A DNA stretch of 32,000 nt. It comes from Candidatus Saccharimonadota bacterium. Lineage in GTDB: Bacteria > Patescibacteriota > Patescibacteriia > 2-12-FULL-60-25. Under the pieces are notes generated by a model, which worked only from the letters and a program-made list of their open reading frames with translations, was not told the origin of the DNA and did no database searches. This document shows positions 13,650 through 16,714 of the stretch, piece by piece. Made by a program: the position numbers and the translations under genes. The stretch lies in NCBI GenBank assembly GCA_023898425.1, contig CP060222.1:870001-902000 (forward strand), written 5' to 3'. Within the stretch, counting starts at the first letter, position 1, and every line of letters starts with the position of its first letter.

Positions 13650-14579
13650 ATGTTCTCTGCAAAAATAAAGCGCTTACTTACCGAGAATCAGGTACTCGTT
13701 ATTCTTCTCGGAGTTATCTTGGGCATTACTCTCCCCTCGCAGCTAAACTTTATCAATGCGTACTCTACGCAATTACTGATATTAGTCTTCTTTTTTCTAG
13801 CTTAAGACTTTCGCTAGATGAGGTGGTGGGCTATACGCCAAAGATTGGCGCATGACGTTATTTGCAAGCATCTACATGCTCATTGTGATGCCGTTTGCGT
13901 TGTTTTTTTCAGCCTCTTTTTTACCCACAGAATGGTCAGTGGCACTGCTTATTTTAGGCGCGATGCCTACGGGTACCACTATTGCGCTCATGGCAGAGAA
14001 TTTTTTGGAGGTAAAACATCGCCTCGCTCTTGTTATTACAACCATTCACCTCATTACTTGCGCCGCTCACTATTCCGTTTGTAAGCAAGGTAGCTATTGG
14101 TACTACGGTAGAAATTGATACGGCACGCATGTTTATCTCTCTCTTTCTTACTATTGTTGCCCCGTTTGCCCTTGGGGTTCTTGTTCAAAAGCGGTGCCAA
14201 AACAAATAAAAAGCGTGATGCCCTTTGGCGTAATATCTCGGTCATTGCTTTTGGCTTTCTTATCACGGGTATTGTCGCGGATTCTGCTGGCGAAGGTATT
14301 ACGTTTACTCTCACCGATGGTGGTATCATGCTTTTTGCGATGGCGCTTCTTGGAGCGCTCACGTGGGGTGGATATTATATCGCTACCTGGCGACAGCCGT
14401 CAGAGCGCGTTACGATCGCACTTTGTATGCTTTATATGAACAATACGCTCGCGCTCTTTGTTGGCGATAAGTTCTTTCGTGAGCTAGGTATTGTTCCAAA
14501 ACAGGTGCTCTTACTCTTGGTGGTTAATGCATTGCTACCCGCCGTTAAAATAGCCGCTCAACATGTCACAAAAACCTAA
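13650..14579 (+). pseudogene. bile acid:Na+ symporter (BASS/SBF)-like permease with about six frameshifts
   Basis: Joining pieces from all three frames gives a continuous permease-like sequence: ..FFSSLRLSLDEVVGYTPK..MTLFASIYMLIVMPFALFF..LLILGAMPTGTTIALMAENFFGGKTSLALVITTI..LLAPLTIPFVSKVAIGTTVEIDTARMFISLFLTIVAPFALGVLVQK..ITGIVADSAG..CMLYMNNTLALFVGDKFF... Shifts fall at or near the T6 runs 13791-13796 and 14001-14006 and the A4 run near 14185. Confidence 0.6.
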
Positions 14580-14622
14580 AAACCCTTTCTTTCGTTCGCT
14601 CATCGATAACCCTACCACTCCT

Positions 14623-15615
14623 ATGCAAAAAGTTTTCATTGCGCGGCCTATACCAGAACCAGCGCTCTCACTTCTTAAAAAGCAAAAAGAATGTTACGGT
14701 AGATATCTATGAGAGAGATGAGATTATTCCTCGCAAAGAACTCCTTAAACGCATTAAAGGCGTTGATGCCGTACTCCCCATTCTCACAGACCGTATTGAT
14801 AAAGAATTTTTTTTTGATGCGGCAGGCCCTCAATTAAAAATCGTGGCGAATTACGCGATCGGATTTGATAATGTTGATCTAAAAGAGGCAAGAAGCGAGG
14901 GATTATTATTACGAATACTCCTGTAGAAGAAGCAGCCGAGTCCGTTGCTGAGCATACAATCGGATTGCTCATCGTGCTCGCTCATCGCATGATTGAGGCG
15001 GATGCCTATGCTCGCGCAGAAAAATACCAAAGGCTGGTCCCTAATCATTTTATGGGCTATGACCTACGCGGTAAGACACACTTGGTCTTATTGGACTTGG
15101 TCGTATTGGTAAGCTTGTTGCCGAGCATGCGGTACAAGGCTTTGGTATGAAGGTTGTCTATACTGACATGAAGCGTGACAAAGATTTTGAAAAACAATTT
15201 GGCGCAAAATATCTTTCTAAAGAAAAAACTTCTTCAAACGTCTGACGCCATTTCATTGCACGTGCCTCTACTCCCCTCGACAAAGCACCTTATTGATACA
15301 GCTGAGTTTTCGCAGATGAAAAAACGGCTCTTCTTATCAATACCTCAAGAGGCCCGGTTGTTCGAGAGAAGGCGCTGTTACGCGCATTGCGCACTGGTCG
15401 CATTGGTGGTGCTGGACTCGATGTCTTTGAATGTGAGCCTGCCATAGATTGTGATCTCACGGATAAGCTAGAACTTAAGTCTTTTAAGAACGTTGTACTT
15501 AACGCCGCACACGGCTAGCGCTACAATAGAAGCACGATCCGCCATGTCAAAAATGGCTGCAGAAAACATCATCGCTGTGCTCAAAGGCAAGCCGCCACTA
15601 AGTCCAGCAAAATAA
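14623..15615 (+). pseudogene. D-isomer-specific 2-hydroxyacid dehydrogenase (glyoxylate/hydroxypyruvate reductase-like) with at least six frameshifts
   Basis: The reconstructed sequence is highly typical: MQKVFIARPIPEPALSLLKKQK|VTVDIYERDEIIPRKELLKRIKGVDAVLPILTDRIDKEFF..IVANYAIGFDNVDLKEA|RGIIITNTPVEEAAESVAEHTIGLLIVLAHR..GKT|LGLIGLGRIGKLVAEHAVQGFGMKVVYTD..|LLQTSDAISLHVPLLPSTKHLID..|[38 protein letters not shown]..|[31 protein letters not shown]. The pieces lie in different frames. Confidence 0.8.
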
Positions 15616-15624
15616 CCCTTAAAA

Positions 15625-15656
15625 CACTCTCTTCTTTGACGAAGAGGGTGTTTTTT
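15625..15656 (+). terminator. intact rho-independent terminator after the broken dehydrogenase gene
   Basis: aaaaCACTCTCTTCtttgacGAAGAGGGTGtttttt: 10-bp stem and a T6 run. Confidence 0.8.
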
Positions 15657-15701
15657 GCTTAGATCTTCGTTATTTGCTCTTTTCACACCCTAAGAGGACT
15701 C

Positions 15702-16714
15702 ATGAGAAATGAACGGAATGCAAACGAACCTATTCAGTTGCTAAAAGATCGGCGGCGGATTGGCGGGCTCACTCAACAAGAAACCGTAGAAGCCATCATA
15801 GAATATCAATCCTCGCGATGACGCCAGTCGCAAACGAGATCTCGAAGAGCTTGTTATCTCGACGCATTTACCTGGGGCATTACTGAGAATCATAAAGCCG
15901 CATCATCAGTATGCAGCACGAAGAACTCCTTTCCTCGTCTATTTTGCGATGAAAAAAGCAATGAACCGTTTTAATCCAAAAAAGAATACGACATTTCTTA
16001 CATACCTGCGTTTGTGGATGAGAAATGAGTTACAGAGAAATCGTACGGATGAAGAGTTTCGTCTCTACAGACAACCATTCGAAAGAAATGCTCTCTATCT
16101 AGCATGCAAATCCATCGATGCGCAGCTACACAATCATTGGGGACATACCCTCCATCACTGATATCCATCAGGAGGGTGTTCGTAGAAAAAACCCATTATT
16201 TGTAAATAAGCATGGCATCATCTCAATAAAAGGTCTTGCCGACCTCATCGCTGAGATGGAAATACCGATCATGTCCCTTCAGACAGAGCGGCACAATGAG
16301 TATGAATATCTGTCATCACATACGTCTCTAAGCCCTTCTTCAAGAGCGCTCATCCATGAGCTACATGCAAATGCAAAAGGCCTTTTGAAGACTATCTGTC
16401 ATTTCTTGTCAGCCAACTTGGTTTTATGGAAGCCGATCTCTGCCTCGAATATCTTTTTATTGGAAAAAACCTACAAAGACGCAGGCTCAATACACCAGCT
16501 CTCAAGAGAGCGTGTACGTAAGATTATCTCGGTGCAAATACCCGAATGTTTTTCTGAACTGGGCTGGCATTCACCAAGCATTCTTTCTGAGCTCGCTGCA
16601 ATCACTTTGCTCACGTATGAGTTTTGTGGAGATACACCCAGTCCAATCTTGGAACGGCTATCGAACCTAAACCACGAGCTCACCGAAGTAAGCCTTTTCG
16701 ACGTTTACCGATAA
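15702..16714 (+). pseudogene. sigma-70 family-like protein, multiply frameshifted
   Basis: ATG 15702 follows AAGAGG. Region 2-like FAMKKAMNRFNPKKNTTFLTYLRLWMRNELQR and region 4-like AGSIHQLSRERVRKII occur in different frames. An EELLSSSIL piece sits in a third frame. I count at least 3 frame changes. Domain assignment is moderate confidence only. Confidence 0.5.

Follow-up and report, generated by a model that had tools for sequence, protein, structure and literature searches.

Reading frames broken by small insertions and deletions (indels) in otherwise recognizable bacterial genes have both technical and biological precedents. Residual homopolymer and indel errors fragment genes in long-read assemblies and persist after polishing (PMC9262707, PMC8812927, PMC12007338). 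Adjacent frameshifted genes also occur among the pseudogenes of reductive evolution, as in Mycobacterium leprae, Rickettsia, and young endosymbionts. In insect endosymbionts, polymerase slippage at long poly(A) tracts rescues frameshifted genes. Here we analyze three consecutive genes, encoding an SBF/BASS-family permease, a D-isomer 2-hydroxyacid dehydrogenase, and a sigma-70-like protein, that are riddled with frameshifts in a 32,000-nucleotide stretch (the window; G000:C1:870001–902000) of a patescibacterial genome. This genome, G000, is a single sequence of 1,032,900 bp with 44% GC. We assign a probability of about 0.9 to the reading that base calling or consensus building in the G000 assembly introduced these frameshifts as indel errors, and that they are not the marks of decaying genes.

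The locus is like Nanopore or PacBio continuous long read (CLR) assembly errors in that the indels are 1 to 2 nt long, come without an excess of substitutions, and are enriched in homopolymers. Further shared features are the splitting of genes into adjacent open reading frames (ORFs), the involvement of essential genes, a genome in one contiguous piece, and short-read assemblies of the same species in which the indels of G000 do not occur. It differs in that the errors are strongly clustered, reaching 7.7 per kb compared with an average of 0.28 per kb, and in that many lie outside homopolymers. With the pseudogenes of reductive evolution it shares a series of adjacent frameshifted genes in a small genome; unlike them, it has no relaxed selection (dN/dS, the ratio of nonsynonymous to synonymous substitution rates, is 0.01–0.03), no nonsense mutations, and neither a bias toward deletion nor deletions of larger size; essential genes are equally affected, and the genes are intact in close relatives. 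An indel-only spectrum of 1 to 2 nt with both signs is unlike known bacterial pseudogene spectra and is typical of consensus errors. The likeness to poly(A) slippage in insect endosymbionts lies in frameshifts at A or T runs within otherwise conserved genes, whereas in G000 the tracts are short and many shifts lie outside any run, with both signs and some dinucleotide insertions among them.

Results

Frameshifts in the permease, dehydrogenase, and sigma-like genes

Between 13650 and ~17230 of the window, the plus strand holds only short ORFs, distributed over all three frames, and these fragments match the Pfam families SBF, 2-Hacid_dh, and 2-Hacid_dh_C and Sigma70 regions 2 and 4, the sigma matches being weak. 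We cataloged the indels by a frameshift-aware protein-to-DNA alignment, using our own dynamic programming, and by nucleotide alignment to two conspecific contigs, and the two approaches agree. The contigs, L137 (ENA ERZ27257452; k141, 11.9 kb) and L145 (NCBI GCA_020429645.1), come from independent short-read assemblies of the same species as G000. Plain tblastn proved unsuitable, as its single-frame reading across the shifts gave misleading identities of 40 to 56%; the frameshift-aware alignment was used in its place. The features of the locus are as follows.

13650..14579, plus strand: SBF/BASS-family permease gene with seven one- or two-base frame changes (Pfam SBF on the intact orthologue).
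14623..15615, plus strand: D-isomer 2-hydroxyacid dehydrogenase gene (D-glycerate dehydrogenase/glyoxylate reductase type) with eight frame changes.
15625..15656, plus strand: intrinsic-terminator-like hairpin (ACACTCTCTTC / GAAGAGGGTGT) followed by T6, 3′ of the dehydrogenase gene, as read from the sequence.
15702 to ~17232, plus strand: sigma-70-like gene with weak region 2 and region 4 matches and ~11 frame changes.
17240..17260, no strand assigned: bidirectional terminator-like hairpin that closes the sigma-like gene.
12817..17300, no strand assigned: extent of the dense indel cluster, as profiled by mismatches and gaps relative to L137 and L145.

The permease frame changes lie at 13791 (T6 versus T7), 13832 (+TA), 13999 (+AA), 14021 (+1), 14045 (+1), 14191 (−1), and 14208 (A5 versus A6), and the final 370 nt of the gene are free of indels. 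Those of the dehydrogenase lie at 14689 (+1), 14890 (−1), 15031 and 15039 (a +1/−1 pair), 15076 (+AC), 15218 (+1), 15321 (−1), and 15499 (+1), with an additional in-frame TTT insertion at 14807. The ~11 changes of the sigma-like gene fall between 15814 and 17166 and are accompanied by one in-frame codon insertion. Taken together, the permease and the dehydrogenase carry nine insertions and six deletions, and every frame-breaking event is 1 or 2 nt long. These 15 events within 2 kb make this the densest spot in G000: in 1000 random placements the mean maximum was 4, and the maximum never exceeded 7. The placement of the indels is clustered and nonrandom.

An initial annotation, made from the letters of the window, had described three consecutive frameshifted genes ending at 16714. 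The three genes are as it described, but the last of them continues to ~17232. The frame-hopping it saw in the permease is real, with seven changes relative to the intact orthologues in place of its approximate six; the dehydrogenase has the eight that it gave as the upper possibility over a minimum of six, plus the in-frame TTT; and the sigma-like gene far surpasses its lower bound of three. It had found no in-frame stop in the first two stitched translations, and we found none in the stitched reading of the permease, the dehydrogenase, or the sigma-like gene. The motifs that it quoted, including AMPTGTT, are present in the stitched translations. The DNA has the hairpin and T6 of the terminator at 15625–15656, whose stem was also recovered on the minus strand by a terminator scan.

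Intact counterparts in related genomes

The relatives of its GyrA protein place the uncultured source bacterium of G000 among Candidatus Uhrbacteria-like Patescibacteria. The comparison with sister genomes that the initial annotation had proposed was made with two genomes of the same genus, G001 and G002, in which the permease (313 or 319 amino acids), the dehydrogenase (328 amino acids), and the sigma-like protein (469 amino acids or more) are intact and syntenic. G001 additionally has a 330-amino acid gene of unknown function between the dehydrogenase and the sigma-like gene (L002 3455–4447; G001:C2:126380–127372), which is absent from G000, G002, L137, and L145. The locus is an ordinary operon-like trio of permease, D-glycerate dehydrogenase, and sigma-like factor that is conserved in Uhrbacteria-like bacteria of the candidate phyla radiation (CPR).

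With the stitched dehydrogenase as query, we found an intact protein of 95% identity encoded on eight short-read contigs, the longest of which is L137. On L137, the genes for the 324-amino acid, DUF559, DUF2207, and 98-amino acid proteins, the permease, the dehydrogenase, the sigma-like protein (496 amino acids), and the next three are all intact. The whole locus is intact on L145 too, and this contig encodes a protein identical to that of the 404-amino acid gene of the window. The orthologues of the sigma-like protein, 469 to 508 amino acids long, are all intact, and all the short-read assemblies that we examined are intact at the loci compared. Exact-protein look-ups with three intact G000 proteins gave zero matches.

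The nucleotide identity between the window and these contigs changes along the sequence. L145 has 0 to 3 mismatches per 300 nt over ~6900–11700, except for 10 in one bin, and L137, which starts at 8910, has 0 to 1 per 300 nt over ~8900–11300; both are 10 to 30% diverged from the window over 12900–17400. From 5700 to 19400 the window thus forms a mosaic relative to L137 and L145, with ~100% identity at 6900–11700, ~10% divergence at 11700–12300, 10 to 30% divergence at 12900–17400, and 3 to 15% beyond. Judged by these identities, the sources of L137 and L145 are conspecific strains, and the permease–dehydrogenase–sigma locus lies on a strain-variable allele. The mosaic suggests recombination between strains, with the permease–dehydrogenase–sigma segment as a swapped allele.

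Substitution pattern and selection

Relative to L137, the permease has 98.7% amino acid identity, with three nonsynonymous and 65 synonymous differences (dN/dS 0.012), and the dehydrogenase has 96.3% identity, with 13 nonsynonymous and 100 synonymous differences (dN/dS 0.027). The two genes together thus hold 16 nonsynonymous differences against 15 frame changes. Lineage-unique replacements in G000 showed no clear excess when compared with the same-genus orthologues. We simulated 15 real neutral indels and found that, at 5 substitutions per indel, ~53 nonsynonymous changes are expected (P(≤16) = 3e-9); at 10 substitutions per indel, ~4.5 stops are expected. Neutral decay is excluded because dN/dS is 0.012–0.027 and there are no nonsense codons despite 15 indels. 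Real decay would require fewer than ~2 substitutions per indel and hence a mutation process made up almost entirely of indels. The living bacterium almost certainly has intact permease, dehydrogenase, and sigma-like genes that are under strong purifying selection.

The sigma-like gene stands apart in its substitutions, with 68.8% amino acid identity to L137, 210.5 nonsynonymous and 216.5 synonymous differences, and a dN/dS of 0.15. Between conspecific strains it is far more diverged (dN 0.21) than its neighbors, which have 96 to 99% amino acid identity. These values suggest that it is a regulator evolving rapidly in this lineage.

Genome-wide error signature

We aligned 664 long ORFs of G001 to G000 in a frameshift-aware manner. 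An event was accepted only when its flanks were well aligned and the target had no open frame across the site, as the unfiltered count was inflated by artifacts at gene ends. Under this strict filter, at least 137 well-flanked frameshifts remained in 72 of 459 G000 orthologues, or 0.28 per kb. The frameshifted genes, identified with NCBIfam, include dnaK (four shifts), gltX (nine in a detailed alignment), murD, argS, eno, tgt, and priA, and each of these seven has one locus in G000. The frame of gltX is broken even within the HIGH-motif region and beside KLSKR. The frameshifts are not restricted to dispensable genes: aminoacyl-tRNA synthetases and DnaK are among the affected orthologues. Since the sole GluRS, ArgRS, and DnaK of a living cell cannot be broken many times, these frameshifts are errors.

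The shifts in G000 are 1 to 2 nt long, run in both directions, are clustered, and are enriched in homopolymers: 31% of shift sites have a run of at least five identical bases (background, 8.3%), and 13.9% have one of at least six (background, 2.4%). An independent Logan short-read contig (L149; SRR14932560), 94 to 98% identical to G000, has intact murD, wecG, gltX, and M23 peptidase genes. Compared with it, G000 has 24 small (1–2 nt) indels in 5 kb at 358,265–363,290, most of them within runs of A, T, or G, and zero in the 6.4 kb that follow this murD–gltX cluster. The cluster at 13650–17232 shares the genome-wide signature, so its frameshifts are also attributed to error.

In the reciprocal alignment of G000 ORFs to G001, an assembly of 8 contigs, G001 itself proved to be error-laden, its frameshifts forming dense clusters of up to 29 in 2 kb where the G000 sequence is intact. 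Examples lie at G001:C3:84060–84828, C3:86853–88693, and C1 near 128 kb; an rsmA/ksgA-like gene of G001 has at least 11 shifts and is intact in G000. On account of its own clusters, we rejected G001 as an error-free baseline and relied on the short-read contigs.

Other broken genes in the window

Further genes of the window are interrupted, among them the following three.

13225..13513, minus strand: gene for a 98-amino acid small membrane protein, upstream of the permease, with four frame changes.
9090..10061, plus strand: gene for a 324-amino acid membrane protein, split into three ORFs by three homopolymer contractions.
11091..12894, minus strand: DUF2207 gene, split into two ORFs by one inserted base at 12266–12268.

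The 98-amino acid gene is intact in L137 to L140 and in L145. Because it is broken in G000, the indel cluster begins before 13650. The 324-amino acid gene is interrupted solely by the contractions at 9474 (A6 to A5), 9686 (A6 to A5), and 9707 (G6 to G5); apart from these, its protein matches the L137 orthologue with 100% identity, and the gene has one synonymous difference. The DNA around these sites has 0 to 1 mismatch per 300 nt to L137 over ~2.4 kb and 0 to 3 per 300 nt to L145, and neither contig has the contractions. Such a pattern, three shortened homopolymers and essentially zero substitutions, points to sequencing error. The initial annotation had contrasted the three broken genes with gyrA, rnj, a cyclase, and a helicase; these four are indeed full-length ORFs, but the contrast was overstated, given the other broken genes nearby, which also include two at 17992–19390 with two frameshifts each.

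Discussion

Of the two explanations offered by the initial annotation, a locally poor consensus is the one that our data favor: the 1 to 2 nt signature is genome-wide, the locus is intact in conspecific strains, and homopolymer contractions occur in near-identical DNA. That annotation also held that sequence alone could not decide between its explanations. Comparative sequence can largely decide. In the simplest reading, G000 would have been built from error-prone long reads and then polished incompletely. On a strain-variable allele, the haplotype chosen for the assembly may have had low effective depth, polishing reads may have mapped poorly, or reads from other strains may have disturbed the consensus and its polishing, and raw consensus errors would then remain and pile up in a 4.5-kb stretch. 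The cluster at 12.8 to 17.3 kb coincides with the diverged allele, and at the murD–gltX cluster the divergence from the nearest public contig is ~5%, compared with 2% in the flank.

Several points weigh against an origin in consensus errors. About half of the shifts in this cluster lie outside homopolymers, and three are dinucleotide insertions, which are less typical of simple homopolymer miscalls. We found no public contig carrying exactly this haplotype of 12.9 to 17.3 kb, and the intact state at the 15 sites was seen solely in a diverged allele (dS 0.36–0.65), not in identical DNA. Our statements on how the genome was sequenced and on why the errors cluster are, moreover, inferences.

A variant that would also make the indels artifacts, and that we hold to be possible but doubtful, is that the consensus is a chimera of at least two coexisting strain haplotypes, with the indels marking points at which assembly or polishing passed from one diverged allele to another, low coverage as such not being their cause. 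The step from a near-identical flank into a segment 10 to 30% diverged from the conspecific contigs would fit such switching, as would the raised divergence of the murD–gltX cluster. However, the three errors at 9474–9707 lie in DNA with at most 3 mismatches per 300 nt to those contigs, and the many isolated shifts across the genome mean that strain mixing is not the sole cause. The mismatch density within the permease and dehydrogenase is, in addition, fairly even, with no haplotype switching visible.

CPR genomes are small and streamlined, and this generality lends some appeal to the other explanation of the initial annotation, genome reduction in progress. Three clustered accessory genes would here be undergoing real, very recent pseudogenization in a lineage extremely biased toward indels. 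The genes are accessory and lie on a strain-variable segment, and their 15 events in 2 kb form the densest cluster in the genome. Against this stand the dN/dS values of 0.012 to 0.027 with zero nonsense codons and the need for fewer than ~2 substitutions per indel, on which we reject pseudogenization as the main cause. The indels are only 1 to 2 nt long and of both directions, with neither deletion bias nor larger deletions; the locus is intact in conspecific strains; and the same signature marks the sole copies of gltX, argS, dnaK, murD, and eno, and it is not possible for all five to be dead. We regard pseudogenization as very unlikely.

Less probable still is the more general proposition that this strain truly has the indels in its DNA. 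This would entail either an indel-only mutation burst confined to strain-variable segments of a few kilobases or a CPR bacterium able to tolerate or decode frameshifts in dozens of genes, gltX and dnaK among them, through unknown recoding or editing. That transcriptional slippage, RNA editing, or programmed ribosomal frameshifting bypasses real indels during expression, an idea for which the A or T runs at some sites and the slippage precedent in insect endosymbionts might speak, deserves almost no weight, as the runs are short (4–7 nt), about half of the sites lack one altogether, the shifts go in both directions and include dinucleotide insertions, no shared motif was seen, and the indels are absent from conspecific DNA. 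An alternative genetic code was set aside as irrelevant, the defect being one of reading frame and not of stops.

The observation of the cluster was itself accurate, but the cluster is with high probability not a real biological feature. Its main value is as a warning about data quality. Although G000 represents its species, artificial breaks split about one gene in six, as they do in its genus-mate G001. Any conclusion of ongoing genome reduction based on G000 would be wrong, as would its gene calls, pseudogene counts, and metabolic reconstructions, and other frameshift findings from this genome are to be read likewise.

Additional sequence features

Isolated 1-nt frameshifts occur further downstream in the window. 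Within 17992–19390, a 199-amino acid gene has them at 18000, 18214, and 18489, and a 227-amino acid mechanosensitive (MS)-channel-like gene at 18991 and 19182. A gene in 20650–21635 has one at ~20926, with the same error signature. Elsewhere in G000, large direct repeats of 2.4 to 2.5 kb with 96 to 98% identity and a few gaps between the copies lie at C1:81314–83782 and 86919–89380, and also at 948961–959894. The G000 sequence terminates in a run of 100 N (C1:1032801–1032900).

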